NCBI GenBank assembly: GCA_965218285.1
Contig: OZ244616.1
Span: 5,635,757-5,699,756 of the forward strand
Origin: Candidatus Poribacteria bacterium
GTDB taxonomy: Bacteria; Poribacteria; WGA-4E; WGA-3G
Direction: 5' to 3'
Length of the DNA: 64,000 nucleotides
A program made the translations under genes and the position numbers. The notes beneath the pieces are model-generated. The model did no database searches. It saw only the letters and a list, made by a program, of their open reading frames with translations, and was not told where the DNA came from. Positions 1,631 through 63,530 of the stretch are shown piece after piece. Position 1 is the first letter of the stretch; each line of letters starts with the position of its first letter.

Positions 1631-1702
1631 CGCTCTTCCATCAAATCCCCATGCTTTAGCTTGTGGGATGTAGATGGCGCATGATGTGTGTGAAAAATAA
1701 AC

Positions 1703-1732
1703 TTGACAAACGCCCCGAAAATGTAGTATAAT
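1703..1732 (+). promoter_or_regulatory. consensus sigma70-type promoter inside element left end (TTGACA 1703-1708, 18-nt spacer, TATAAT 1727-1732)
   Basis: Read directly. The same hairpin-then-promoter arrangement recurs in every element of this family. Confidence 0.5.
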
Positions 1733-1899
1733 TATAGCAACTTGCTGGATAGGAATACTACCCTGCATACTTATGCAGGTCCTATCCTTACCAGTAGTAT
1801 GGTGTGTGGCAAGTTGCAAGTGAGACCTTGTCCAACATCTATTATTTCGGTGTCGTTCATGTAAGTCGCAAGCGGAGTAATAACCCCGCGCCTTGTATC

Positions 1900-2088
1900 G
1901 GCACCCCCATTTATTATTTTTTGCAGGCTGGGGTGCCCAGGACAAGAATGCCTGATAAAACCGATCTGATTCGGAATAATAGCCTGCTGGTGGAGCGATA
2001 ATAAGACGGTGGACTCTCTGAGAAAACCGCAGTTGCTACGAAGCCGAGGTCTCCCCTACCTTTAGGTAGTGGGTGGTATCACAATATA
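1900..2088 (+). ncRNA. putative TnpB-type omegaRNA (reRNA) scaffold. Boundaries approximate.
   Basis: Homologous to the region downstream of the tnpB remnant at 30420-30608. Ends in the RE hairpin cccctacctttaggtagtggg. Confidence 0.35.
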
Positions 2089-3025: not shown

Positions 3026-3074
3026 TTTTTCTCCTAAAGAATTAAATTACATCAGAATTTTTACACTCTTCCTG

Positions 3075-3468
3075 TCAAATCCCCATGCTTTAGCTTGTGG
3101 GATGTAGACGGCTAAAATCGTTATTTGTCAAAAAACCTTGACATTTTCACTGACACTTGATATACTCTTTTTAGCAGTCGGCATTGGTTCTGATTGATGC
3201 GGTGGTAGACCGCTTGGCAGTGAAACAATCAGGTAAAAGCCTTGCGATTCAATACTGCTAAAGTTCTTTGTAACATCTATTGCACGTTTAGGATAGCACG
3301 TTTGAAAAGACAGCATCCGCTTGAAAATCACGTGTCAAAATAATTAGTTGCCTTCGGGCAAGTGGCTGGCTTAGCAGCCACTGTGGAGCAGACATAAGAC
3401 GCTTCTTCGGAAACGCTGACTGCTACGAAGCACAAGCCCCAGCCTTTAGGCTGTGGGTACTATGACTA
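3075..3468 (+). mobile_element. ORF-less TnpB-family derivative (LE hairpin, promoter, omegaRNA-like RE)
   Basis: Hairpin ccccatgctttagcttgtggg at 3081-3101 plus atgtagacggc. TTGACA(3138-3143)-17-TATACT(3161-3166). 3' end ...agcctttaggctgtgggtactatgac parallels the other right ends. Confidence 0.45.
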
Positions 3469-3962: not shown

Positions 3963-4589
3963 AGACAATGCCCTTCAGTAAAAGCACTTAATTATTAGGA
4001 TGGCGTCGCGTGGTTTGTTGATGAAGTTACGAACCTCGTTACAGGCAACAATCCAGCAAATGTCTACATGTTTATTTGAGATTTTACATTTTACTATAAA
4101 TCGGATCACTTCGTTATTTGAGCAAGTTTCGTGCCAATGTTTCTAAGAATGCGTAATATTGTGTCAGGAAAGATGAAATTCTATGCATATTTTTATCATC
4201 TGTCTTAAACATAGACTCAGACTAAGTTTATCAAGTGAGCGGATATCTTAATTTTTTCGAGAAAAATCACATTAGCGTTCGTTTTCCAACCTTTGCTTTT
4301 TATGGTGTGCAAAAATTGTGGTAGAGTCCTGCATAAATTGCTGCATTATAGTAAGGTCTATAATTATTTACATAATTTGACCTTTGGACAACTTCAAAAC
4401 ACGACTATAAATGTAAGAGGCGCAATGAATTGCGCGACTACAAACGCAGTAAACCCAAAGAAAAGTGTATAGGTATTTTTGGATTTCACTATAAGCAATT
4501 TTGGTAGTGGATATTTGGAAGAAATTTACCATTAGTAGCAGGCGAACGTAGTCATTATTGGAGTGGGTCGAACTGTCCTTATACTGGAC

Positions 4590-5381
4590 TCAGGTTCTAG
4601 GGTGCTCTACTCTCCTGGCTTTAACAGCATACATAGGCCACGAAAAATAGAAATCGTCCTCAGAGGCTTCAACTGTGTAATGCTTTTTTGCATCATCAGG
4701 TGAAAGTTTAGCAAACGCATCACGGATTTCTTGGACCACTTCTGGTGGGTTTTTCTGTGGACGTACCCACCACAAAAACGACATTTGTGCATTTCGCACA
4801 TGCGCTGTTTTCTCAATCTCAAAATCCGCATTCGCAATCATCGCATCCCACTGAGATGGCGGATACCCAAATACATGAGAATCGTCGCGTAATTTCTCTA
4901 CGCGGTTCTGCCATGCTATTAACTGTTCTGATTCAGGGGAAACGGAATCGACGAGACAAAAAAGTCCAGCTATTCGTAGAACCCGATGGACCTCAGACAA
5001 GAATTTTGGGACGTTTTGAAAATGGTGAGGGGCAAGTCGACAGGTCACTAAATCTAACGACGCAGTAGCAAACGGTAGAGATTCTGCAGCGGCAACAGAA
5101 AACGCGATATTCTCTATCGTTTGTTCCTGTGCGAGTTCGGATGCTTTCGTTACCATCTCCGGTGTTAAATCAGTAGCGACAACATGCGCTACTTTTGGAG
5201 CAAGTGCGAACGCTGTAAAACCTGTGCCTGTCGCAATATCCAGTGCTTTTTCTGTCCCTTTTGGATCCGCAAAGTTAAGGATTACCTCAAGGGTATCACC
5301 TTTTGCATGCGCACTGCTTTGCGCGTAGTACTCAGCATGTTGGCTAAACTGGTCTCGGACAGTGGTATGGATGGATTTCAT
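4590..5381 (-). CDS. class I SAM-dependent methyltransferase
   Basis: Motif I LDIATGTGFTA, acidic motif II VATDL, Methyltransf_11-like layout. Confidence 0.7.
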   Translation of the reverse strand: MKSIHTTVRDQFSQHAEYYAQSSAHAKGDTLEVILNFADPKGTEKALDIATGTGFTAFALAPKVAHVVATDLTPEMVTKASELAQEQTIENIAFSVAAAESLPFATASLDLVTCRLAPHHFQNVPKFLSEVHRVLRIAGLFCLVDSVSPESEQLIAWQNRVEKLRDDSHVFGYPPSQWDAMIANADFEIEKTAHVRNAQMSFLWWVRPQKNPPEVVQEIRDAFAKLSPDDAKKHYTVEASEDDFYFSWPMYAVKARRVEHPRT

Positions 5382-5466
5382 ATATTAGTTGTCGGGTAAA
5401 GAGGATTATTTCAAACTGGAAGAGGCACGATGTATTGCGCGACTACAAACGATTTATGAGAATGCG

Positions 5467-6594
5467 TTAGTTAAAGACAATAACGCCACGGGCATTTTCA
5501 CCGGCTTCCATATCCGCAAACGCCTCATTAATCTGATCAAGTTGATAATGTTTTGTGATCAGTTCATCTAACTTCAACTTCCCTTCCGTATATAGATTAA
5601 GAAGTTTCGGCATATCCACCCGGGGTTGACATGAACCGTAGAACGAACCGATTATCTGCCTTTCAGATGCGACGAAGTGTTGCGCTGGAATGCTGAATTC
5701 CATTTCATGGTGTGCCATTCCAACAATTACCGCAGTGCCAGCAGCGCGCACCATACGATATGCTTGAACGATAGTTTTCGGATTGCCGATGACTTCAAAA
5801 GCATAATCTACGCCGCGACCATCGGTTAATTCACGAACCGCTTCAATAGGATCACATTCAGCAGCGTTGACGACATCCGTAGCACCAAAACGTTTGGCAA
5901 AGTCAAGTTTTTTCTGAGCAATATCAACAGCGATAATCTTTTCTGCTTGTGCAAGCACAGCACCTTGAATGGCATTTAAACCTACACCGCCGGTTCCAAT
6001 AATCGCTACAGAACTACCGGGTTCCACCTTCGCTGTATTGAGAACTGCACCAACACCTGTTGTCACACCACATCCGACAAGCGCAGCTTGCGCTAACGAA
6101 TAATGATTATCTATTTTGACGAGGTTTTGTTGTGGCACGACCATATATTCCGACATCGTTGCAATCCGTGTCATCTGAAGGATACCCTCACCCGATTTGT
6201 TATATAAGCGATAAGTGCCATCTAATTGAAACCCGCGAGGTACATCGTAACTTTCGCAAAGGCAGACTTTCTCCATCTGACACATGTGGCAATCACCGCA
6301 ATATGTGACGAAGGATAGAATTACATGGTCACCCGGTTGGAAATCTGCTACATCCTCACCTACACGTTCAATTATACCTGCGCCTTCGTGTCCGAGTACG
6401 ACAGCAGCATCGTAGTAGATAGCACCCGTAACGACCGATAGATCAGAGTGGCACACACCACTTGCAGCAGTACGGACAAGGACTTCATTGGCTTTCGGTT
6501 CTTCTAAGTCCAGTTCCTCAACAACCACAGGTTGATTATGTTCATACATAACAGCGGCGCGTGTTTTCATCACTCTTCGGACTGGAGACCCCAT
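5467..6594 (-). CDS. zinc-dependent alcohol dehydrogenase family oxidoreductase. True start probably MKTRAAV near 6570.
   Basis: GHEGAGIIERVGEDV zinc-ADH signature, structural-zinc cysteines (CGDCHMC), GTGGVGL Rossmann motif. The first 8 codons of the listed ORF are supplied by an IS-derived repeat. Confidence 0.75.
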   Translation of the reverse strand: MGSPVRRVMKTRAAVMYEHNQPVVVEELDLEEPKANEVLVRTAASGVCHSDLSVVTGAIYYDAAVVLGHEGAGIIERVGEDVADFQPGDHVILSFVTYCGDCHMCQMEKVCLCESYDVPRGFQLDGTYRLYNKSGEGILQMTRIATMSEYMVVPQQNLVKIDNHYSLAQAALVGCGVTTGVGAVLNTAKVEPGSSVAIIGTGGVGLNAIQGAVLAQAEKIIAVDIAQKKLDFAKRFGATDVVNAAECDPIEAVRELTDGRGVDYAFEVIGNPKTIVQAYRMVRAAGTAVIVGMAHHEMEFSIPAQHFVASERQIIGSFYGSCQPRVDMPKLLNLYTEGKLKLDELITKHYQLDQINEAFADMEAGENARGVIVFN

Positions 6595-6908
6595 CCTTTA
6601 GGTTGGGGAGGAAAGCCCGCTCCTTTTATTTTTGGTATTAGGAGTTTAGTTTCCAATCAAATATAACTGAAAACTAAATCCCTAATATGCACAAACATAA
6701 GTTTGCGTTCTCCCTTTCGGGGTGTCTGTTGCCCCATCCAGATCACAGTATCCGAGAGGAATCGGACTTGGGGAGCATCCGAAACATCGTGCTGGCTACC
6801 ACGCCAAGATACTGCGATATTTTACTGTAGTCAACGGTTTAACTTGTGAAGTGGACGCTCGGATTGCGCTTTGCACAAGCCCCATGCTTTAGCTTGGGGT
6901 TATTGACC
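6568..6908 (-). mobile_element. ORF-less IsrB-type element: RE repeat (6568-6624) plus omegaRNA module (about 6715-6908), with no isrB gene
   Basis: 6568-6624 matches 14918-14973 (catcactcttcgg.ctggagaccccatcctttaggttggggaggaaagcccgctcc). 6722-6908 aligns almost base-for-base with 16000-16190, the region between the IsrB start codon and the LE terminus ...ccccatgctttagcttggggttattgac. Confidence 0.55.
6715..6908 (-). ncRNA. orphan IscB/IsrB-type omegaRNA scaffold copy
   Basis: Near-identity to the 5' UTR module of the intact isrB at 15977-16190. Confidence 0.4.
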
Positions 6909-6963
6909 ACTAACCGATGATATTAACCTGTATATTTTCGTGCAATGCTGTGCATTTCACTTC

Positions 6964-8055
6964 TTATACGGTTTGCAAGTTACTCATAGATAGTAACCAG
7001 GGTTCATCTACCAAAGCACGCAGGAATATCCCGCGTGCGCCATTCAAGTCTCTGTTCATCTTGAGTCCTGTGCTATCTTTGATTATCTTTCGTCCGCCGA
7101 GTGATTTTCTAATCTCACCATTCCAAGAAACTGTTTTTGATGTGTATGCTTCACAGACATCAACTACAATACATCCAGTTTCTTCTGCTTTATGTTTTAG
7201 AAATTGTTTGAATCTGTAGTGAGATAGTGTCAACATTTGTCTTGCAGACTTTTTTCGTAGTTTGCGTTTTCCACGCATCACCATATCTGAAGTCTCAAAT
7301 GTGGGGAGCAAGATAATATCAAAGTTATCAACAAGGTATCGTGCAACTTTATGGTGCAATTCATCAACAAGATTTCTGATACGTGTGCGTATTCTGTTTG
7401 CAGCACGTCTCATATTCTTGCGTGATTGTTGAGTCGCTTTTGTTGCATGGGATAAAAGATTATCAAGGTGTGAACAAAGTCTTTGAATCCGATTAATAGC
7501 ATGGTGTCCAAGCCATCCGAAACCACGCTCATGAAAATATGTGAGGAATGTTCTCACGCCAAGGTCTAAAGCAACAACACGTCCGTTTGACTTTCGCTTC
7601 GGAGTTGTCACAGTATAAGATACACATAGATAGTATTTATCATTCTCTTTTACCAGTCGGGAGTCACAGATATTATCAGGTAACATCTCTGACATCTTTA
7701 GCTCACCAAGTAAGGTATGATAGACACCGCGTGGTTTTATAGCAGACTTTGGAATGAAAATACTATCTGATGGATGACGTTTAGACTTGAAAGAAACAGA
7801 TTGAAACTCACCTGTTTTCTTACATTTTCGCTTTGCTTCTCTGACAGCAATAGACTTTATCTGATACGGAGTTTCTTTGCTCCAATCAGGTAGATCGTGA
7901 AGAATGCCTGTTTTTATCGCTTTCCAATTTGCTTTTGTGTCTGTTTCGTTCAACAAAGCAACGGTTTTATCGAGTTTCGGTGTCAAAACCCAATGCTTTA
8001 GCTTTGGGATGTAGACACCGCCCTCTTGTATTAGACCAAAACTTTTTCTTGACAT
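6964..8055 (-). CDS. tnpB: TnpB-like RuvC-fold nuclease (IS200/IS605/IS607 accessory protein). N-terminus probably disrupted; the annotated first ~25 codons run through another element's left end.
   Basis: RuvC-I VVALDLGVRTF, RuvC-II LLPTFETSDM, C-terminal ..CEAYTSKT..NRDLNGARGIF (RuvC-III D.N.A..I motif) with a degenerate zinc finger. The -35 box of an opposite-strand promoter overlaps the annotated ATG. Confidence 0.65.
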   Translation of the reverse strand: MSRKSFGLIQEGGVYIPKLKHWVLTPKLDKTVALLNETDTKANWKAIKTGILHDLPDWSKETPYQIKSIAVREAKRKCKKTGEFQSVSFKSKRHPSDSIFIPKSAIKPRGVYHTLLGELKMSEMLPDNICDSRLVKENDKYYLCVSYTVTTPKRKSNGRVVALDLGVRTFLTYFHERGFGWLGHHAINRIQRLCSHLDNLLSHATKATQQSRKNMRRAANRIRTRIRNLVDELHHKVARYLVDNFDIILLPTFETSDMVMRGKRKLRKKSARQMLTLSHYRFKQFLKHKAEETGCIVVDVCEAYTSKTVSWNGEIRKSLGGRKIIKDSTGLKMNRDLNGARGIFLRALVDEPWLLSMSNLQTV

Positions 8056-8411
8056 AAAACACGATTCTTGCTATAATCTCTTTTCGTAACTCCACGGGTT
8101 GTGAGCAGGCGTTCTGGGTGCTACATACCGAGTGAACTCACGTAAAGTTGCGACACAAGCGGTAGAAGTCTTTGACACCAGATAGTTGCTGATGGAAGCT
8201 TAGAGTGTAATGGGAAAGAGTGGTAGGACACCATCCCGAAAACAGCACTCTCAAAAATGTTCATAAGACACCTTCGGGTGTGCAGGCGGGGCATCGTCTG
8301 TTGGAGTAGAGGGTGTTAGACTTGCTTAGCAAGCAACCCTTGTTGATACCACAATCTACACAGCAGGTGGGACAAAAGAACCCCACTGCTTTAGCTGTGG
8401 GAGTATGTCAG
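7983..8411 (+). mobile_element. plus-strand ORF-less TnpB-family derivative lying between the tnpB body and its N-terminal fragment
   Basis: LE hairpin cccaatgctttagctttggg (7995-8014) plus atgtagacacc. TTGACA(8049-8054)-17-TATAAT(8072-8077). RE hairpin ccccactgctttagctgtggg (8388-8408) plus agtatgtcag, as at 63502-63530. Confidence 0.4.
8049..8077 (+). promoter_or_regulatory. consensus sigma70 promoter (TTGACA-17-TATAAT) on the plus strand
   Basis: Read directly. Confidence 0.45.
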
Positions 8412-8530
8412 TGTAAGTGAAACGTGCAGTGCCCAACCACTGCCGAAGTGTTTCACGTTGTTCTGTTGTCGGATAGACTCTTATCTTCTTTGATTTTGTC
8501 ACGGTAACTTCTGAGCCCGTGCATCCGGCA
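8356..8530 (-). pseudogene. tnpB: tnpB N-terminal fragment (..KKIRVYPTTEQRETLRQWLGTARFTYTD..) directly downstream of tnpA. Same frame as the 6964-8055 body, but separated from it by about 300 bp containing a stop.
   Basis: Canonical TnpB N-terminus pattern (Y.FRLYPT.EQ...L....G.ARFVYN). The listed ORF 8356-8967 ends inside hairpin 8388-8408. Confidence 0.45.
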
Positions 8531-9040
8531 ACTGAAGACATGCAAGATTGCGAGAAGATCCGCTGTGAGTTCTTCTTGTGGACTGTGTTCTGTTTTGTCC
8601 AAAACCACGAGTTCGCCACCGTTTTGTTCAATAAGGTATCGTATAAGGTCGATACCGAAGCGGGCGAGTCTATCCCAATGGGCAATAACAACTTGGAGCT
8701 TATCACCTCGCATAAGCCGTTCCAATAAGGTTCTAAGACCTTTTCTTTTGAAGTTGATACCACTTCCGATGTCTCTGATAACTGCTGCGTCGGGGTAGAT
8801 GCTTCGCATATACGCAACTTGTCGTTCAAGGTCATCTCTTTGCTTTGTGCTGGATACTCTGCAGTAGCAAACAGTTGTAATTGATTTGGATTTGCTTTTG
8901 ATGTATCCTTCAACATCATAGCGTCTGTGTCCGCCTCCTGTGCGGATAATATCAATCTTTCCTTCATTTGCTAACTTCCTTAAATGGTCGGGTGTATAAT
9001 CCAGCAGTTCACTTGCTTTACGGGCTGATACATAAGTCAT
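8453..9040 (-). CDS. tnpA: IS607-family serine recombinase TnpA (MerR-like HTH plus resolvase catalytic domain)
   Basis: N-terminal HTH (ASELLDYTPDHLRKLANEGKI). Catalytic-serine motif YCRVSSTKQ. tnpB starts overlapping its 3' end, as in IS607. Confidence 0.75.
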   Translation of the reverse strand: MTYVSARKASELLDYTPDHLRKLANEGKIDIIRTGGGHRRYDVEGYIKSKSKSITTVCYCRVSSTKQRDDLERQVAYMRSIYPDAAVIRDIGSGINFKRKGLRTLLERLMRGDKLQVVIAHWDRLARFGIDLIRYLIEQNGGELVVLDKTEHSPQEELTADLLAILHVFSCRMHGLRSYRDKIKEDKSLSDNRTT

Positions 9041-9099
9041 ACTATATTATAATATATATCAATAGAAATGTAAAGAAAAATATAGATTTTTAGATACTG

Positions 9100-9999
9100 T
9101 TACTCAACCTCTTTAAGCAATGCCTGTGTTTGCCGATTGGATGTTTTGAAGTACGTCGCTAAGGTTTGTTGTAATTTATCAAGTTGATGACGGTCACTTT
9201 CAAGAGAGTTAATTCGCTTTTCATAACTTTCTAAGTTGGTGAGACGTTCAAAGATATCTTGTAGTAGGTTTTCCAATTCGCGGTAGCGCACCTGCTCTTC
9301 TTCCAATAATTCCATTTTCTCTGCCATTAAGGTGAGCGTTTTCTTAGTCTTGTCCAACTCAGTCTGAAGCGTTCGTGTAAAAACGATTAATTTCTCCAGC
9401 GTATTAGTCGTTTTATAGACCGGTACCTCTGGATCCGTAGGAGGGAAACTTTTGGGGATAACATGGACATCATCTTTTTCTGGAATATCTTCTGAATTAT
9501 CTTCAGTTAAATCTATATCAGTTTTTTGGGGAATACCAAGTTCTGGATTTGGTGGAGTAACAGGTTGAATTTCAAAGACACCTAACAATTTGATATTATA
9601 TGTAGATGGAATATAGTTCTCTTTACGCTCAGTATAAGATATTTGGACACGAAGTTCCTGAGTAATCTTCAGAGAATTCAGACGGGTATGGATATTTCGG
9701 ATCGCAACCTCATTATACCCGAATGCTTGATTCGATTTCGGAGTTAACTGCCGGAGATAACGGTAGAGTTCCATCACATCAGAACTTTCCCGCGAGATAC
9801 CCTCTTTCGTTAAAATTCCGACTATGTCTTCATCTTCAGGATTTGTGGATGTTTGCAAACTCGGTATGACAATGTCCAGAGGCACTTCGCCTTGAATTGC
9901 CTTCATCCCAAGAGTCCAACTGTTCTCTGAAAGTCTACCGCTGAAGGCGATAAAGTCGTAACTTATTGTCATTGTTTTTTCAACCTTATCTTTTTTCAA
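9100..9999 (-). CDS. hypothetical protein with an acidic Pro-rich middle region and a C-terminal coiled coil
   Basis: Long ORF with no recognisable catalytic motifs. C-terminal heptad-like E/L/K-rich segment. Confidence 0.4.
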   Translation of the reverse strand: MKKDKVEKTMTISYDFIAFSGRLSENSWTLGMKAIQGEVPLDIVIPSLQTSTNPEDEDIVGILTKEGISRESSDVMELYRYLRQLTPKSNQAFGYNEVAIRNIHTRLNSLKITQELRVQISYTERKENYIPSTYNIKLLGVFEIQPVTPPNPELGIPQKTDIDLTEDNSEDIPEKDDVHVIPKSFPPTDPEVPVYKTTNTLEKLIVFTRTLQTELDKTKKTLTLMAEKMELLEEEQVRYRELENLLQDIFERLTNLESYEKRINSLESDRHQLDKLQQTLATYFKTSNRQTQALLKEVE

Positions 10000-10095: not shown

Positions 10096-10320
10096 CATTC
10101 ATCACTCTTCGGGCTGGAGACCTTATCCTTTAGGTTGGGGAGGAAAGCCCGCCTCCTTTTGTTAATAAGTGCAGGTGATTTAATCTTGCACCTGCTACGA
10201 GATGTCTGTGTTGGGTATCGCCCAGACGACGCGACCTGTAGTCAACTGTTTAACTTGTGGAGTGGACGCTTGGTATGCGCTTCGCACAAGCCCCATGCTT
10301 TAGTTTGGGGTTATTGACTC
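10096..10320 (-). mobile_element. truncated ORF-less IsrB-type element (RE repeat plus about 85 nt of the omegaRNA 5' region plus LE terminus)
   Basis: 10096-10150 matches the RE repeat. 10237-10318 matches 16105-16190 (ctgtagt.caac.gtttaacttgtggagtg.acgcttggtatgcgcttcgcacaagccccatgctttag.ttggggttattgac). Confidence 0.5.
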
Positions 10321-14597: not shown

Positions 14598-14947
14598 ATA
14601 AAACGCACTTACTTTTTACATGAGCCTGATTTTTTACTATAGACTTATTATTCTTCGGCACACAACGTATGCATGCTAATCGTTATAGAAAACCCACAAT
14701 CATTCTTATGATGTGGTAGATGCCGAATTCTAAAAGCGTATCTGCTGTTAATTCACCACGCGTTTCCCTACCGAATAATCTATTCGTGTAACGTTTCTTC
14801 AAAGACTTCAAGGTTTTGTGCCTGAGCTGCATCGAGGAGCAGCTGTTCCAGGCGTTGCAAATCTTCTATGTTTTGAAGTGCCGGTGTTAAGGCATTCACG
14901 GCTTCTACATGGAATTTCATCACTCTTCGGGCTGGAGACCCCATCCT

Positions 14948-15976
14948 TTAGGTTGGGGAGGAAAGCCCGCTCCTATAGTTAAAATTCAGACGCGTAAGAA
15001 CTTTGAAATCCTGTCGTTTCGCGCCTGTGGTGATTCGTTTCCCATCCAAACTGTAGATAGAAAACAAACCTTTTGCGTTAATACCTGAAAGTCTTGTTAA
15101 TCCGTGTTTGACATGCTTCACCAAAGTGTTCTTGACCAAGCCTTGTGCTAATATGGTGCCACCATATCGCGAACGAATGCCGTTCTTTTGTGGGTTCTGC
15201 CGATGAAGTTCACGTCTTGAAACAGGTATCGGTGCGATGCAGAATATATCTGTGTTGTCGGGGACATCCACCCCACCGACAGTGTGATATGCCAAACACC
15301 AACTATCTACACAGTGTGCATCAAACGTCTCTGTGAGTTTCTTGAAAGACTTCTTGAGTCCAAGTCTATCTCGAAGTTCTTTCGTCTCCCAACCTTGAAG
15401 TGTGAACAATGTCCATCGCTTTTGTATCTCACTATAGAACCAAGACTTTCCGACTTCAAGAGGACTGAAAGAACTATTCCACTTTTTCGCACGTTTGATA
15501 GTCCTTGCTCTAATATCCTCTACACAGACATGTGTGACAGGATACATATTAGACAACCAATCCAAAATACGCAGTTTCCAATCCCATCTCGCACGCGTGC
15601 CAGCCGGTATCCTTTCTTTATTAGCAGGGTGCCGATTAGTTCGGTTCTTTCGGTTTGGACACGAACGACTCCGACGGGTTCTCCGAAGTTCGCGACGCTT
15701 TTCTATTTTTTTACCCACTTTGCTATGTGCATCAGTTTGAACATTCAAATACGTGTGTGCCTCAGACTTCACCGTGAACCCTTCTTTCTTGCTGCCAGGG
15801 TCTACACCTACAGCAATCTCTTGTTTGTATTCTGTTGTTTCGTAGTTTAATCGAATACAGAAGATACCATTATTCCAATACGGGGTCGCCTTACCACTTT
15901 TGATAAGGTGCCTCGCAACTGGCGGAGAAGTGGGCATCAGTTGTTCACCATCCTTAGATTTCACTGGAACGAACAT
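14948..15976 (-). CDS. isrB: IsrB: RNA-guided RuvC nuclease/nickase of the IscB family lacking the HNH insert (342 aa)
   Basis: N-terminal PLMP domain (KSKDGEQLMPTSPPVARHLIKSGKA). RuvC-I AVGVDPGSKKEGFTV. Arg-rich bridge helix KRRELRRTRRSRS. RuvC-II CVEDIRARTIKRA. RuvC-III DAHCVDSWCLAY. No HNH/Cys4 segment. Size typical of IsrB. Confidence 0.7.
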   Translation of the reverse strand: MFVPVKSKDGEQLMPTSPPVARHLIKSGKATPYWNNGIFCIRLNYETTEYKQEIAVGVDPGSKKEGFTVKSEAHTYLNVQTDAHSKVGKKIEKRRELRRTRRSRSCPNRKNRTNRHPANKERIPAGTRARWDWKLRILDWLSNMYPVTHVCVEDIRARTIKRAKKWNSSFSPLEVGKSWFYSEIQKRWTLFTLQGWETKELRDRLGLKKSFKKLTETFDAHCVDSWCLAYHTVGGVDVPDNTDIFCIAPIPVSRRELHRQNPQKNGIRSRYGGTILAQGLVKNTLVKHVKHGLTRLSGINAKGLFSIYSLDGKRITTGAKRQDFKVLTRLNFNYRSGLSSPT

Positions 15977-16190
15977 GTCGTTAGAACTCCTTTTCAGGGT
16001 ATGTGTTTCCCCATCCAGATCACAGTATCCGAGAGGGATCGGACTTGGGGGGCATCCGAAACATCGTGCTGGCTACCACGCCAAGATACCACGATATATT
16101 ACTGTAGTACAACGGTTTAACTTGTGGAGTGAACGCTTGGTATGCGCTTCGCACAAGCCCCATGCTTTAGCTTGGGGTTATTGACCTTCA
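15977..16190 (-). ncRNA. IsrB omegaRNA (5' of isrB, same strand). Guide segment expected immediately beyond 16190.
   Basis: About 215-nt conserved structured module between the LE terminus and the start codon. Copied without the ORF at 6715-6908, 10237-10320 and 30635-30800. Confidence 0.5.
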
Positions 16191-29644: not shown

Positions 29645-29884
29645 CGGTAGCGAAACCATAGGCGTCAATTTAAGGAAAGAACTCGTTTGTAGTCGCGCAC
29701 TTCATAGTGCCTCGGACATTCAAAGAAAAGAGGCGCTATGAATTGCGCGACTACGAACGCTGATATTCTCGTCCTTTGCGTTATTTGAGATGTTGATACA
29801 AAAAGGTGCGGTTAGGAAACCGCACCTACCGGGTTGGGAACCGCTAAATTGACGCTTATGGTGCGGTTAGGAAACCGCACCTAC
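29645..29884. mobile_element. MITE of the ggtgcggtt-palindrome TIR family (type 2 interior with a 29-bp-stem hairpin). Left TIR truncated.
   Basis: Shares ataggcgtcaatttaaggaaagaactcgtttgtagtcgcgca...gaggcgctatgaattgcgcgactacgaacgctgatattctcgtcctttgcg with the units at 45412-46524. Right end has two copies of ggtgcggttaggaaaccgcacc. Confidence 0.5.
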
Positions 29885-30040: not shown

Positions 30041-30243
30041 TTGATCTTTACTTTAACGATCTTCCGTCAAATCCCCATGCTTTAGCTTGCGGGATGTAGA
30101 TGGCAACCTTTGGTTTACTTCGTGAAAAAAGATTTGACTTTTTTCTAAAGATGTTGTATGATTAGAGTATCAAGTTGACAGGCATTTTCAGCGTAGTCGC
30201 AAGACTATGTGCCTGTCTTACCCACTGAAAAGGGGTTAAGTGC

Positions 30244-30474
30244 TTGATACTTGAGACATCGTCCATGAAAACCTATAAATATGAGTTTTCTCATCAATCT
30301 AACTTGATACAGATTGGCAATCTGATAGACGATGGACATAGCGTACATGTCCATTTATTGCGTCTACAACCGCTTTCAGACCGATATTGGACATGTCCAG
30401 AATGCAGCACACACCACGATAGAGACGTAAATGCTGCCATAAACATTTTGCAGGCTGGGGTGCCCGTGTCTTGA
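30244..30474 (+). pseudogene. tnpB: internally deleted tnpB (76 codons: N-terminal segment fused to the zinc-finger/RuvC-III C-terminus)
   Basis: [21 protein letters not shown] is a canonical TnpB C-terminus. The RuvC-I/II regions are absent. Confidence 0.6.
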
Positions 30475-30608
30475 TGCACGATAAAACTGCTCTGATGCAG
30501 AATAATAGCCTGCTGGTGGAGTGATAATAAGACGGTTGACTCTTTGAGAAAACCGCAGTCGCTATGAAACCTAAGCCCCTACCTTTAGGTAGTGGGTGGC
30601 ATCACAAT
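30440..30608 (+). ncRNA. putative TnpB-type omegaRNA (reRNA). Boundaries approximate.
   Basis: Overlaps the tnpB 3' end and runs to the RE hairpin cccctacctttaggtagtggg, as in characterised IS605/IS1341 TnpB systems. Duplicated at 1920-2088. Confidence 0.4.
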
Positions 30609-30634: not shown

Positions 30635-31052
30635 GTCAATAACCCCGCGCTAAAGCATCGGGGCTTGTGCGAAGCGCATGCCAAGCGTCCACTCCACAAG
30701 TTAAACGGTTGACTAGACGATATATCGCGGGTCTTGTCGTGGCAGGAAACCACAAGATGTTACGGATGCTCCCCAAGTCTGTATCCGCTCTGATCCCGTG
30801 ATGTCGATGGGGAAACATATACCGCGAGAGCGTGGGCTTATAGCCATTATTTTCTGGTAAAGACATCGTGTCAGGTCAAGTAAGCGAGTAGTGACAGTCT
30901 CACTGAACGAAGCAGCACAACTGAATCCAGACTCCCAGTGTGCAGGTGGAGATAAAACAGCACTCCCCCTTTTGGGGACAAATTATAACTATAATAGGAG
31001 CGGGCTTTCCTCCCCTGCCTAAAGGCGAGGGGTCTCCAGCCCGAAGATTTTG
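30635..31052 (+). mobile_element. ORF-less IsrB-type element in plus orientation (LE/omegaRNA module at 30635-30800, RE repeat at about 30995-31052)
   Basis: Reverse complement of 30635-30800 aligns to 16020-16190. Reverse complement of 30997-31048 matches the RE repeat (ggagcgggctttcctcccc..cctaaagg..ggggtctccagcccgaag). Confidence 0.5.
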
Positions 31053-45336: not shown

Positions 45337-45411
45337 TAGAATTAAACATGAAAACATAACCTAAGTTCAACTAATACCATATTAACAGGATTTATCTCAT
45401 TTTTCTTGGTA

Positions 45412-46524
45412 GGTGCGGTTTCCGAACCGCACCATTAGCGTCAATTTAAGGAAAGAACTCGTTTGTAGTCGCGCAATTCATTGCGCCTCGGACATTTGAA
45501 GAAAAGAGGCGCTATGAATTGCGCGACTACGAACGCTGATATTCTCGTCCTTTGCGTTATTTGAGATGTTGGGACAAAAAGGTGCAGTTAGGAAACCGCA
45601 CAGTCTCTTATGGAATATGCGTCCGATAACCATTTTCGCGAACGCCTCGGTGCGGTTCCAAACCGCACCATAGGCGTCAATTTAAGGAAAGAACTCGTTT
45701 GTAGTCGCGCAATTCATTGCGCCTCGGACATTTGAAGAAAAGAGGCGCTATGAATTGCGCGACTACGAACGCTGATATTCTCGTCCTTTGCGTTATTTGA
45801 GGTGTTGGGACAAAAAGGTGCAGTTAGGAAACCGCACAGTCTCTTATGGAATATGCGTCCGATAACCATTTTCGCGAACGCCTCGGTGCGGTTCCAAACC
45901 GCACCATAGGCGTCAATTTAAGGAAAGAACTCGTTTGTAGTCGCGCAATTCATTGCGCCTCGGACATTTGAAGAAAAGAGGCGCTATGAATTGCGCGACT
46001 ACGAACGCTGATATTCTCGTCCTTTGCGTTATTTGAGGTGTTGATACAAAAAGGTGCGGTTAGGAAACCGCACCATAGGCGTCAATTTAAGGAAAGAACT
46101 CGTTTGTAGTCGCGCAATTCATTGCGCCTCGGACATTTGAAGAAAAGAGGCGCTATGAATTGCGCGACTACGAACACTGATATTCTCGTCCTTTGCGTTA
46201 TTTGAGGTGTTGATACAAAAAGGTGCGGTTAGGAAACCGCACCATAGGCGTCAATTTAAGGAAAGAACTCGTTTGTAGTCGCGCAATTCATTGCGCCTCG
46301 GACATTTGAAGAAAAGAGGCGCGTGAATTGCGCGACTACGAACGCTGATATTCTCGTCCTTTGCGTTATTTGAGGTGTTGATACAAAAAGGTGCGGTTAG
46401 GAAACCGCACCTACCGTAGTTGGAAACTGCTAAATTGACGCCTATGGTGCGGTTCCAAACCGCACCTACCGGACCTGGAGGATCACTAAATTGACGCATA
46501 AGGGACGGTTAGGAAACCGAACCT
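45412..46524. repeat. tandem array (about 4.5 units of about 245-310 bp) of the ggtgcggtt-TIR MITE family, type 2. Each unit holds a perfect palindrome (ggtgcggtt-loop-aaccgcacc) and a 29-bp-stem hairpin (gtttgtagtcgcgcaattcattgcgcctc ... gaggcgctatgaattgcgcgactacgaac).
   Basis: Read directly. Units more than 95% identical. Immediately downstream of acpS. Confidence 0.7.
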
Positions 46525-46599: not shown

Positions 46600-47163
46600 T
46601 GACGGCTCCCAAAGCTAAAGCATTGGGTTTCCTTTAGTTCCTTCTCCGTTCTGAACTTTGGAAGGTGGGCATCTTTTGCATATTGTGATATGCTTCTGGG
46701 CTTTTACCGAGTGTTCGTCTGGTTTTTCAGCTGATAGAAAACTCGCCCATCGACTTGATAAACCTCAGCAATGTTGAGGTGGCACCCGCCAGCGGTGCGA
46801 CTACAGGGTCCTTGCTAAGCCCCAATTGAGCAACCCTGATACTTTGGTTCTTTAGCGTTCCGTTTAGTTCGCGGTTGTGGAGGGTTCTCCTACACAATCT
46901 CTAAAATGCGAATGCAGAACTCATCACAAACGAATGAAGGATCATAACCTTCGACGTATAGTCCGAATGTGGTATTGTTGGATTTACCAACACCAACTCT
47001 GTCCAAACAATTGGATTGGATAGGACACCTACGGGAAGTAGGCGATTGCTTTCCTATCCAGTTGGTAGAAATATAATACCACATTTCTTGAAATAAATCA
47101 AGGTTTTTTTGATAAATTGAGACGTTAGCGGTGTTTCATCCCAAAGCTAAAGCATTGGGCTTT
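46600..47163 (-). mobile_element. minus-strand ORF-less TnpB-family derivative (RE-type hairpin 46608-46627, LE hairpin 47138-47157 with minus-strand promoter)
   Basis: Both hairpins are cccaaagctaaagcattggg, the complement of the 7995-8014 LE hairpin. On the minus strand the 47-kb copy is followed by atgaaacacc and TTGATT-17-TATTAT. The 46.6-kb copy is followed by gagcc, an RE-style flank. Confidence 0.4.
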
Positions 47164-47221
47164 CACACCGAACGTTTGGTAATCTCTCTGATTCTCACAT
47201 TGTCACATTGTCAAAAGCGGT

Positions 47222-52689: not shown

Positions 52690-53088
52690 TGACATCTCCC
52701 ACACCTTGAGGAGTGGGATTCTTAGGTCTTATATCAGTCCTTAATGTTTCTGAATGCCTTGTTCTTGCTTCTGCATCCACTGCTCCGTAGTTGAGTCTAA
52801 CACGGACTCCACAGGCGTTTAGACTCTCCCAGTGTCCCCAGGCGAGTTATTAGTGAATGTGGTAGGGATGTTGTAGTAACAACATATATTAAGTGTTCTC
52901 TACCACATTCTAATGTTTTGAGTGATTTCGCACCAGCACCACATACCTTATCACGGATGGGGACAGGACTCAACACAGGTAAGTGTTGAGGTGATAACCC
53001 TGTCCAACGATGCTACATATAGTATATACTATTTCGGTGCAAATGTCAAGCGTTTTTTGACCCACAGTTAAAGCAGTGGGATTATTAG
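52690..53088 (-). mobile_element. probable minus-strand ORF-less TnpB-family derivative bounded by two cccac..gtggg att.ttag hairpins (52698-52717, 53061-53080), with a minus-strand TTGACA-17-TATACT promoter (plus-strand complements 53044-53049 and 53021-53026)
   Basis: Hairpin-plus-promoter arrangement identical to 3937-3956/3869-3897. Hairpin family shared with 62898. Confidence 0.35.
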
Positions 53089-62897: not shown

Positions 62898-63530
62898 CCC
62901 ACTGCTTTAGTTGTGGGTCAAAAAAGTGTTTAAAGTTCTTGTTTTATATATGCAATTATGTTGGACTAATTAGACCGTTCAGTAGTCCGTGCTGATACAC
63001 GGACTATGCCTTATCGGAGGGAACGGAATCCTGTCAGAACGGTATATCATAATGTTCAAAACACACAAGATAGCGTTAAATCCAAATAAAAAGCAACGTG
63101 CGTGGTTTGCTCAACAATGCATCTATGATTGGTATTGAAACACTGAAAATAACGAACATGCTAAAGAACAGGAAATTAGCAAAAGCGTTATCTGATAGTG
63201 CGTTAGGTGGGTTTCTCACTAAACTCAAATGCAAAGCGGAAACGCTTGGTATTCCAGTTATTGAGGCACCACAATTCTTTGCGTCAAGCAAGACGTGCAG
63301 CAGTTGTGGACATAAGAAAACAGAGTTATCATTGGCAGAACGGCAATACAATTGTGATGTGTGTCAATACACAGAAGATCGTGATGTTAACGCTGCCAGA
63401 AATCTAAAACAACTCGCCGCGGGATACGCGGAGAGTCTAAACGCTTGTGGAGTCTAAGTCAGACCTCCACAAGAGGAGGCATCGGATGAAGAAGCAAGAA
63501 GCCCACGACTTTAGTCGTGGGAGTATCACA
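62898..63530 (+). mobile_element. TnpB-family element with disrupted tnpB: LE hairpin 62898-62917 (-35 box mutated), N-terminal tnpB fragment, fused C-terminal fragment, omegaRNA-like RE with hairpin 63502-63521
   Basis: MFKTHKIALNPNKKQRAWFAQQC (63052-) is a TnpB N-terminus that hits a stop after 28 codons. 63098-63457 ends ..CSSCGHKK....YNCDVCQY.EDRDVNAARN (zinc finger plus RuvC-III). RE flank gtgggagtatcac. Confidence 0.5.
63052..63457 (+). pseudogene. tnpB: tnpB pseudogene (N-terminal and C-terminal pieces in different frames, RuvC-I/II missing)
   Basis: See above. Confidence 0.5.

Follow-up and report, generated by a model that had tools for sequence, protein, structure and literature searches.

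IS607 is a common bacterial mobile element. Elements with a Y1 (HUH) transposase insert as single strands, by 'peel-and-paste', 3' of a target motif which is not duplicated. IS608, which inserts 3' of TTAC, and ISDra2, which inserts 3' of TTGAT, both carry subterminal hairpins and leave no duplication. Protein-less derivatives of the IS200/IS605 family, known as PATEs, have been described in Geobacillus stearothermophilus; their ends match those of elements with TnpB and IscB, and they often carry omegaRNAs that are used in trans (Meers et al. 2023, PMC10055086). In IS607 elements a structured RNA has been reported which spans the 3' end of tnpB and the right end of the element (Zedaveinyte et al., bioRxiv 10.1101/2023.11.20.567912).

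The locus described here lies in a 64-kb stretch of DNA, referred to as the window, from a Candidatus Poribacteria genome. Its arrangement is, very probably, that of a nested insertion, ie a non-autonomous IS200/IS605-type mini-element inside the tnpB gene of an IS607 copy which is most likely dead, with an independent IsrB-type module next to it.

The IS607 copy and its interrupted tnpB

The IS607 copy lies on the minus strand and comprises the following features.

6914..9109, minus strand: IS607-family element, 1755 bp without the 441-bp insert that it contains
9046..9074, minus strand: candidate promoter upstream of tnpA, TTTACA-17-TATAAT, 11/12 in a consensus scan, a pattern match only
8453..9040, minus strand: tnpA, IS607-type serine recombinase of 195 aa, from Pfam and NCBIfam
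8412..8502, minus strand: tnpB 5' fragment, Pfam HTH_OrfB_IS605 (1.4e-10) and alignment to intact homologues
7971..8411, plus strand: the 441-bp insert, assigned as a protein-less IS200/IS605-type mini-element (PATE), mapped against an intact copy base by base
6964..7970, minus strand: tnpB 3' part, Pfam OrfB_IS605 and Cas12f1-like TNB

As this element has neither terminal inverted repeats nor hairpin ends, its boundaries were set by comparison among eight loci. The sequence shared by these independent loci runs exactly from one boundary to the other, and outside it they diverge. The left end begins GGTTGAGTAAC at 9109 and the right end closes with ...GGTTAATATCATCGG at 6914, so that in the eight loci compared the element runs GG...GG (GGTTGAG... 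/ ...ATCGG) with no inverted repeat. The identification in the earlier note of an IS607 serine recombinase at 8453-9040 is confirmed by the agreement of Pfam (Resolvase, 8.9e-19, with an N-terminal MerR-type HTH) and NCBIfam (transpos_IS607, 170.9 bits against a cut-off of 110). Comparison with homologues and the resulting substitution list gave one change specific to the window, R122W (codon TGG at 8677-8675), which falls within the otherwise conserved stretch AHRDRLARFG.

The tnpB gene is in two parts. Its 5' fragment, which opens with GTG, holds 30 codons (MTKSKKIRVYPTTEQRETLRQWLGTARFTY) and breaks off after base one of Asn31. The GTG at 8502 is likely to be the start of tnpB, and overlaps the end of tnpA (8453) on the same strand. 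The N-terminus had been placed at about 8530-8416; the Pfam match upholds its identity, but the extent is revised, with a likely start at 8502 and native sequence as far as 8412. The 3' part takes up the Asn31 codon at its second base and runs to the stop. The ORF over this body opens at 8055, whereas homology to TnpB restarts only at 7970 (KTVALL...). The body, frame and ORF proposed earlier for 8055-6964 are retained with that restriction, and the first 28 codons of the ORF are indeed mini-element sequence, as had been suspected. The two halves share one frame, with stops between them. Exact-protein look-ups gave no record for either tnpB fragment, so the source contig is absent from the collection searched.

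Removal of 7971-8411 in silico gives a continuous TnpB of 365 aa in which the Asn codon is restored. The rejoined protein scores 144.5 bits with NCBIfam guided_TnpB (cut-off 100) and is covered over 100% of its length by intact homologues at 93-98% identity; RFTY-N-KTV is unbroken in every TnpB homologue compared. An intact IS607 copy is found in a related genome (locus L001, 5857-7635), and the window copy matches it with 98.9% and 97.5% DNA identity on either side of the insert. The earlier proposal that a mini-element had inserted into tnpB is thus borne out twice, by the TnpB restored on excision and by the empty site in the related genome.

The body might instead have been a naturally short TnpB with its true start at 8055, 8412-8502 being an unrelated remnant. 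An ATG-initiated ORF of 363 aa does occupy 8055-6964, and some homologues in the databases are annotated with lengths of 336-363 aa. Those short homologues are, however, gene calls from an internal Met which still have the unbroken ...YVYNKTV... reading, the first 28 codons of the window ORF derive from the mini-element, and the fragment and body are collinear with a single intact gene at the identities given above. The unbroken homologues and the collinear L001 copy refute a short subfamily that truly starts at 8055, and the idea can be given virtually no credence.

Two further lesions are present in tnpB. Relative to 12 homologues and to L001 there is a deletion of 21 nt (seven codons, IAVRDAC) at about 7851, and P174L (CTT at 7563-7561) alters the RuvC-I DPG motif beside the catalytic Asp (GAC at 7566-7564). 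Both fall in columns which are invariant, or nearly so, in the homologues. A functional TnpB is marked by a continuous ORF with the HTH_OrfB segment and by intact motifs, and the window copy has neither. Because of the insert after 30 codons, the seven-codon deletion, P174L and the TnpA R122W change, the split tnpB is judged from its sequence to be most likely dead and the IS607 copy to be decaying.

In common with other IS607 elements, the window copy has tnpB downstream of a serine-recombinase tnpA and overlapping it, lacks terminal inverted repeats, and has a structured RNA that spans the 3' end of tnpB and the right end; it differs in being interrupted and mutated (bioRxiv 10.1101/2023.11.20.567912).

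Junctions, ends and relatives of the insert

The insert lies in the opposite orientation to tnpB, inside the Asn31 codon, and has three recognisable features.

7978..8020, plus strand: left-end subterminal hairpin, outer stem GGTGTC/GACACC, inner CCCAA-CTTTAG loop-TTGGG
8049..8077, plus strand: sigma-70 promoter, TTGACA-17-TATAAT, 12/12 in a consensus scan, with an upstream TG
8369..8411, plus strand: right-end module, a CCCCACTG-CTTTAG-CTGTGGG hairpin and then AGTATGTCAG

The filled site in the window reads GGTTTTAT[CGAGTTTCGG...GTATGTCAG]TGTAAGTG, with the insert in brackets, and the empty site in L001 reads GGTTTTATTGTAAGTG, ie TTTTAT|TGTAAG across the point of insertion. Compared base by base, the two sites place the insert directly 3' of TTAT with no target-site duplication. 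Previously this element had been given 430 bp at 7983-8411; the right edge at 8411 holds, while the left edge moves to 7971 and the length to 441 bp. TTAT lies 5' of the left end in eight of nine flanks when the window is included, ie in seven of the eight full-length relatives, the exception (L004) having TTAC. An in-frame peptide repeat in the hairpins, PQLKQW / PKLKHW, was considered as a target duplication and rejected, as it is what the two ends of the mini-element encode when translated in the frame of tnpB.

Many elements in this genome have hairpin ends that are nearly identical, which can confuse assemblers, and the split could in principle be a repeat-induced chimera. The junctions, however, fall exactly at the canonical termini after TTAT, with host bases neither lost nor gained. 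Since such exact junctions are what transposition gives and mis-joins do not, an assembly artefact is highly improbable.

The plus-strand hairpin-and-promoter content described in the earlier note is recovered, with hairpins at both ends and a perfect sigma-70 promoter. Folded as single-stranded DNA the left-end hairpin has -11.9 kcal/mol (z = -4.2), and its outer stem covaries among the other cassettes of the window (GGTGTC/GACACC, CCATC/GATGG, CCGTC/GACGG). The right-end hairpin is present but at z = -1.0 has no significance on its own. Both hairpins read CTTTAG on the plus strand, in the same orientation. With up to three mismatches allowed, the window has 12 occurrences of the hairpin motif CCCAAGCTAAAGCATGGG, against 0.02 expected. 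The promoter points to the right end of the mini-element and then to the antisense strand of the IS607 tnpB and tnpA. Between it and 8411 there is no terminator-like site, and promoter-like hexamers occupy the equivalent relative position in the four other cassettes.

The ends have close relatives. Compared with a 1447-bp tnpB element at L001 4100-5546, the insert is 95.7% identical over its start (69 of the first 71 bp) and 97.7% identical over its last 43 bp, the right-end module at 8369-8411 matching L001 5504-5546. Over the first 75 bp and the last 43 bp, identity to the ends of such 1.4-kb elements is 95-98%. The terminal 33 nt of the right end are identical in nine full-length Poribacteria elements of about 1.4 kb, and every match to the right end comes from a Candidatus Poribacteria MAG, for which reason a cyanobacterial source was rejected. 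These relatives are tnpB-only elements of the IS200/IS605 type, in which tnpB reads toward the right end. Because of its hairpin ends, their likeness to those of tnpB-only elements and its TTAT flank, the insert is, by its sequence features, a non-autonomous mini-element of the IS200/IS605 type (PATE).

Recurrence is seen for the ends of the mini-element only. The longest ORF in the insert (57 aa) has no homologues by protein word search, and tblastn with both IS605-type TnpB families detected no TnpB remnant there. Remnants of tnpB do survive in other cassettes of the window, among them sequence from the tnpB 3'-end/omegaRNA region. The interior (8042-8368) gave no match in Rfam, to L001-type elements by blastn, or to the L003-type 3' region by nhmmer, and no second copy was found by blastn in the window and 19 further loci. 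An exact 31-mer from the promoter region had 0 matches in the JGI metagenomes, and a left-end 31-mer had one metagenome match, to an unrelated left end. Single-sequence folds of the insert gave no significant signal against shuffles (plus strand z = -0.5, minus strand z = -1.55).

An intron-like insert, of the IStron or another self-splicing type, would be removed from the tnpB mRNA so that TnpB was still made. The shared frame of the two halves would suit this, and IStrons of the IS605 and IS607 families, as well as ORF-less PATEs with IStron ends, exist (10.1101/2023.11.20.567912). Against it, no intron of group I or group II was matched by Rfam on the plus or the minus strand, even at E up to 10, and the sense strand of the mini-element, as judged from its promoter and the direction of tnpB in its relatives, is antisense to the interrupted gene. 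The 5' junction of a group I intron is expected after U, and on the tnpB strand it follows A. The minus-strand fold is that given above, and tnpB bears further lesions. Repair by splicing is on this evidence very improbable indeed. Having no group I intron, the IS607 copy in the window is no IStron.

For the preferred reading, that of a transposed mini-element, the closest models are IS608, ISDra2 and the PATEs. Like IS608 and ISDra2, the insert is placed 3' of a tetranucleotide, has its subterminal imperfect palindromes on a single strand and leaves the target unduplicated. It differs from them in its TTAT target and in the absence of a Y1 tnpA from both element and window (a crude motif search of the 64 kb found no Y1 (HUH) transposase), and its full-length relatives carry tnpB alone. 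The likeness to PATEs (PMC10055086) lies in the retention of only the hairpin-bearing left and right ends, in ends that also occur on elements with TnpB or IscB/IsrB in the same genome, in a fixed short target motif, here TTAT, without target duplication, and in movement dependent on a transposase in trans. Differences from PATEs (PMC10055086) are the perfect promoter, the interior of about 330 bp which is unlike both end-sharing TnpB families, the Poribacteria host lineage and the target, which is the tnpB of an IS607 element.

On this reading the mini-element integrated just 3' of TTAT in the Asn31 codon without duplication, as Y1 'peel-and-paste' elements do. It retains only the hairpin ends that such a transposase recognises, a strong promoter and about 330 bp of other sequence, and a Y1 TnpA encoded elsewhere would move it in trans. 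Its insertion parts the first 30 TnpB codons from the remainder, probably with loss of TnpB function, and transcription may proceed from its promoter.

The IS607 right end and the adjoining IsrB-type module

Beyond the tnpB stop the following features were mapped.

6914..7060, minus strand: IS607 right-end RNA structure, a predicted TnpB-type omegaRNA scaffold, from RNAalifold over eight loci
6571..6907, minus strand: separate IsrB-derived mini-element consisting of omegaRNA, spacer and far-end hairpin
6697..6907, minus strand: IsrB-type (HEARO-like) omegaRNA module, Rfam HEARO RF02033
about 6585-6612, minus strand: far-end hairpin of the IsrB-derived mini-element, its far end common to 14940 and 10122

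The right-end RNA overlaps the 3' end of tnpB and continues 50 nt past the stop. Over the eight loci RNAalifold gave 41 pairs, of which 15 have compensatory changes, with 96% of cells paired. None of 500 shuffles reached the observed values, and slid controls gave at most 2. In the window the sequence of this RNA is identical to that of the intact L001 copy, and its guide position begins at 6913 (TTAGTGGTCAATAACC...).

The earlier note had an IsrB-type omegaRNA module at 6715-6908, lying there in place of a TnpB-type right end and omegaRNA. A module is present, at the corrected coordinates of 6697-6907, but it replaces nothing, as the IS607 right end is present to 6914 with its own RNA structure intact. 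The module starts 6 nt past that end and is a separate IsrB-derived mini-element, adjacent to IS607 by chance. The mini-element terminates in ...GAGTG, followed by ATGAA.

Like the HEARO/IscB-IsrB omegaRNA (RF02033), the module aligns over the full length of the model and has the 5' GUCAA...CCCC-CUAAAG-GGGG hairpin. It is 91.5% identical to 15987-16186 (HEARO, 28.4 bits), which is directly upstream of an RRXRR ORF of IscB/IsrB type at 14948-15976; this ORF matches the N-terminal half of NCBIfam IscB with 94 bits (cut-off 175) and is without the C-terminal half of the model. It differs from HEARO in scoring 30.5 bits (E 8e-4) against a gathering score of 83, which makes it a divergent relative at best, and in having no adjacent protein gene at 6697-6907. 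At gathering thresholds Rfam found nothing in the whole window. At E up to 10, over 6400-9200, it gave only this weak HEARO match, with nothing in the insert and no intron.

A possible guide RNA and the effector of the orphan cassettes

A more active role for the mini-element is also conceivable, in which it is a working carrier of guide RNA and a homing parasite, its omegaRNA directing an IS605-type TnpB in trans to empty IS607 copies. The flank TGTAAGTGAAACGTGCAGTG past 8411 would then be the guide of a read-through RNA, an uninterrupted IS607 would be cut at TTAT+TGTAAGTGAAACG (TTAT+TGTAAGTGAAACGTGCAG), and the mini-element would be copied in by recombination. The perfect consensus promoter, free of terminators up to the right end, is consistent with this, as is a right-end module identical to the one in full-length TnpB elements, where the direction of tnpB is toward this module. 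The target of TTAT plus 20 nt is unchanged in the intact IS607 of L001, PATEs often encode omegaRNAs used in trans (PMC10055086), and other cassettes in the window keep sequence from the tnpB 3'-end/omegaRNA region. However, the match of the insert to end-sharing TnpB elements is limited to the last 43 nt; its interior is unlike the 3'/omegaRNA region of either the L001 type (blastn) or the L003 type (nhmmer), and its plus strand folds no better than shuffles. No second copy of the interior was found for covariation, and a cognate intact tnpB is absent from the window. The balance makes a working guide carrier unlikely. The fuller proposal, of a protein-less guide-RNA vehicle whose guide is complementary to intact IS607 tnpB (TTAT + TGTAAGTGAAACGTGCAGTG), which homes into every uninterrupted IS607 copy via an IS605-type TnpB supplied in trans, and whose antisense transcript dampens tnpA and tnpB, is slightly less likely again. 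If true, such a vehicle would represent an RNA-guided conflict between two transposon families.

The split tnpB had also been proposed as the effector for the many orphan TnpB-type omegaRNA cassettes. These cassettes have IS200/IS605-type ends, which in relatives flank TnpBs of their own, and the window holds no cognate intact tnpB for ends of this kind. Identity between the IS607 TnpB and the TnpBs to which such ends belong is only 22-24%; by this comparison the IS607 protein is not the natural effector of the cassettes, and the proposal is not supported.

One insertion sequence landing in another is a commonplace event. For the poribacterial IS200/IS605 lineage, base-exact boundaries and a TTAT target motif are now available. 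The boundaries and the covariation-supported omegaRNA structure are now given for an IS607 lineage common to Poribacteria and cyanobacteria, and should be useful in annotation and in the mining of compact RNA-guided nucleases. As the split tnpB is in all probability dead and does not partner the cassettes, the effector of the cassettes should be sought among IS605-type tnpB genes elsewhere in the genome, together with a Y1 tnpA.

The interrupted tnpB and its empty site

Domain searches recovered all the parts that the earlier note had named in the IS607 copy, namely a tnpA, a TnpB N-terminus and a TnpB body ORF.

9040-8453, minus strand: tnpA, IS607-type serine recombinase (Pfam Resolvase, 8.9e-19, plus a MerR-type HTH)
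8055-6964, minus strand: tnpB body, a 363-aa ORF with OrfB_IS605 and Cas12f1-like TNB domains

The tnpA product scored 170.9 bits against NCBIfam transpos_IS607 (cut-off 110). The TnpB N-terminus (Pfam HTH_OrfB_IS605, 1.4e-10) lies in a second frame, which reaches a stop at 8356; this frame is common to both tnpB pieces, with several stops between them. Removal of the insert in silico, the check proposed in that note, gave a continuous TnpB. As a protein-database query the joined protein returned 2974 matches, the best of which span 100% of its length; BLASTP identity reaches 93%, or 98% over aligned columns. The junction sequence ...GTARFTY-N-KTVALLNE... is uninterrupted in every homologue. 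It is also present in the shorter database entries (336-363 aa), whose starts were called at an internal Met. A genuine start at 8055 is thereby excluded, and the alternative of a naturally short TnpB beginning there is refuted.

The closest TnpB homologue lies on L001, a contig from a related strain that is syntenic to window 44.8-54.8 kb (93-97% identity) and carries its IS607 at a different place. L001 5857-6556 matches window 9111-8412 at 98.9% identity, and L001 6557-7635 matches window 7970-6913 at 97.5%. As the matches stop at 8412 and resume at 7970, the window-specific insert is 7971-8411 (441 bp); the mini-element proposed within tnpB is thus borne out by an empty site, with its left edge moved from 7983 to 7971. 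Read on the plus strand, GGTTTTAT is followed directly by TGTAAGTG in the empty site; in the filled site the insert (CGAGTTTCGG...GAGTATGTCAG) stands between the two. No base was gained by duplication and none lost, and the insertion point is within the AAT codon of Asn31. Because these junctions are canonical, it is unlikely that the split tnpB is an assembly artefact.

Besides the insert, a 21-nt deletion and 14 substitutions set the window copy apart from L001. In a comparison with 12 homologues three changes proved peculiar to the window: a deletion between 9-nt direct repeats that removes IAVRDAC from TnpB; P174L in TnpB, within the ALDPGVR RuvC-I motif; and R122W in TnpA, within the stretch AHRDRLARFG. 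With these lesions and its N-terminal 30 codons detached, the TnpB is, judged from its sequence, very probably non-functional.

Ahead of the TnpB start, the TnpB frame also has no stop for about 120-160 codons, over most of tnpA in the +1 frame (window 8967-8503, minus strand), both here and in all seven related IS607 loci (L001 and L012-L018 being those listed). The open frame persists in many homologues in the database, called at 502-549 aa, with identity there down to 39%. Between one and three +1-frame stops were observed per tnpA, against means of 5.5-8.5 in synonymous-codon shuffles; the depletion is significant (P <= 0.005) in six of seven tnpA genes (those of the window and of five related loci, out of six tested), and the other frame shows none. 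The open frame could mean an extended TnpB isoform, a frameshift fusion or an overlapping gene.

At window 48412 the related strain has a 5-kb cluster (L001 2633-7629) that is absent from the window, which marks the site as an insertion hotspot. It comprises a 298-aa OrfB remnant, a 1447-bp tnpB element, a small Impact_N gene and the intact IS607. A tandem array of five or more units of about 170-236 bp, about 90% identical, occupies window 45400-46420; one more unit lies 16 kb off (29655-29830), and only one unit stands at the syntenic place in L001.

The IS607 right end and the IsrB-derived elements

Sequence shared by eight loci (TnpB identity 65-98%) places the IS607 ends at GGTTGAGTAAC (window 9109) and ...GGTTAATATCATCGG (window 6914), directly outside which the loci diverge. 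Over the last 150 nt or so the consensus fold has 41 pairs; 15 show compensatory changes, and 96% of cells are paired. None of 500 shuffles attained the observed values, and slid controls gave at most 2. This agrees with the published layout, in which IS607 omegaRNAs overlap the right end (10.1101/2023.11.20.567912). With this stretch identical in the intact L001 copy, the window's IS607 still has its TnpB-type right end and omegaRNA, and nothing has taken their place; the earlier view that an IsrB-type module stands there instead does not hold.

Against Rfam HEARO that module (6697-6907, minus strand) gives an alignment over the full model, but its 30.5 bits (E 8e-4) fall short of the gathering score of 83. 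A copy with 91.5% identity at 15987-16186 immediately precedes a 342-aa ORF with an RRXRR domain; the match of this ORF to the IscB model is confined to the N-terminal half, as would fit an IsrB-like protein.

14948-16186, minus strand: apparently intact IsrB-like locus, the 342-aa ORF and the preceding HEARO-like RNA (28.4 bits)
6571-6907: IsrB-derived protein-less mini-element
~10117-10318: a second such element
~30635-31020: a third such element

The far-end hairpin of the IsrB locus (14940-14958) recurs at 6585-6612, and with the HEARO-like RNA it makes 6571-6907 an IsrB-derived mini-element of its own. Since it begins 6 nt past the IS607 right end, it sits in the IS607 guide position. The ends at 6571, ~10117 and the intact locus (14940) finish in ...GAGTG and border on ATGAA, which may be a 3' target-adjacent motif. 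The ATG at 6571 is likely the start codon of an alcohol-dehydrogenase-like gene, whose entire upstream region the mini-element would then supply.

Orphan cassettes and their effector

Four further IS200/IS605-type cassettes have the order hairpin-promoter-RNA-hairpin.

1641-2072, plus strand: cassette
3073-3456, plus strand: cassette
30066-30595, plus strand: cassette
46607-47172, minus strand: cassette

In the alignment, promoter-like TTGACA/TATAAT hexamers stand at the same relative position in all four, and the outer left-end stem covaries among them. A tnpB 3'-end sequence is still recognisable in at least one, and on sequence they look like deletion derivatives keeping the omegaRNA region. 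A RuvC-III remnant (DRDVNAA) is still encoded at 30418-30461, and 46607-47172 has an 84% identical copy at a different site in L001.

The IS607 TnpB had been put forward as their effector. Its identity to the IS605-type TnpBs found with cassette-type ends is only 22-24%, and its RNA terminus (GGTTAATATCATCGG) bears no resemblance to theirs (GGGAGTATGTCAG), so the cassettes are not natural partners of this TnpB. No intact IS605-type tnpB was found in the window, only two remnants of the L003-type, one of the two TnpB families that have the insert's right-end module (the other being the L001-type). At 63019-63500 (plus strand) an internal deletion joins residues ~1-37 to ~253-395 (67% identity), with a right-end hairpin at 63504-63521; a separate remnant of about 100 nt from the 3' region lies at 52741-52844 (minus strand). 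Both are intermediate in form between a full-length element and a mini-element. No Y1 enzyme turned up when the window was searched with a crude motif; the cassette effector and the Y1 transposase presumably lie elsewhere in the genome.

Identity of the insert

The ends of the insert resemble those of the 1447-bp L001 element (4100-5546): identity to one end of that element is 95.7% over insert bases 3-71, and to the other end 97.7% over the last 43 bp of the insert. The L001 element encodes a 389-aa TnpB reading from left end to right end. The right-end 33-mer, searched for as an exact match in GTDB genomes, was found nine times, always in Candidatus Poribacteria MAGs, and the matches with enough upstream sequence are tnpB-only elements of about 1.4 kb. 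TTAT directly precedes the left end in the window and in seven of eight full-length relatives. A hairpin with loop CTTTAG occurs on the same strand at both ends (left end, z = -4.2), and the longest ORF, of 57 aa, has no homologue found. The fixed 5' tetranucleotide, lack of duplication and subterminal hairpins are hallmarks of the IS200/IS605 family and of PATEs, the derivatives of that family without a protein gene. According to Meers et al. (PMC10055086), PATEs have ends in common with TnpB and IscB elements resident in the same genome, and they 'often encode omegaRNAs' that act in trans.

The identical right-end module occurs on the L001-type and L003-type TnpB families, only 28% identical to each other, so these ends act as an exchangeable transposase-recognition module. 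This suggests that recognition ends were exchanged, or converged, among co-resident elements in Poribacteria. The terminal 37-43 nt and similar left ends are found in both (L001 4100-5546 against L003, L005, L008, L010 and L011).

8049-8077, plus strand: sigma-70 promoter, 12/12 matches plus an upstream TG, at the start of the interior (8042-8368)

No terminator-like site was found between this promoter and the insert right end, so transcription would leave the insert antisense to IS607 tnpB and tnpA. The interior differs from the four cassettes, with no similarity to them, to either TnpB family or to Rfam; it has no second copy in any collection scanned, and its single-sequence fold is not significant. 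An intron-like insert is disfavoured: it matches no intron model, is antisense to tnpB and has the wrong 5' junction base for group I, and the tnpB carries additional lesions. The most interesting of the readings left is that the insert is a homing guide-RNA vehicle, which is mechanistically possible because the TTAT+guide target is unchanged in intact IS607 copies, although no sign of an omegaRNA scaffold was found in the interior.

The insert is a poribacterial IS200/IS605-type PATE within the tnpB of a decaying IS607 copy, beside an IsrB-derived mini-element to which it is unrelated; the nested insertion is real, cleanly resolved and ordinary.
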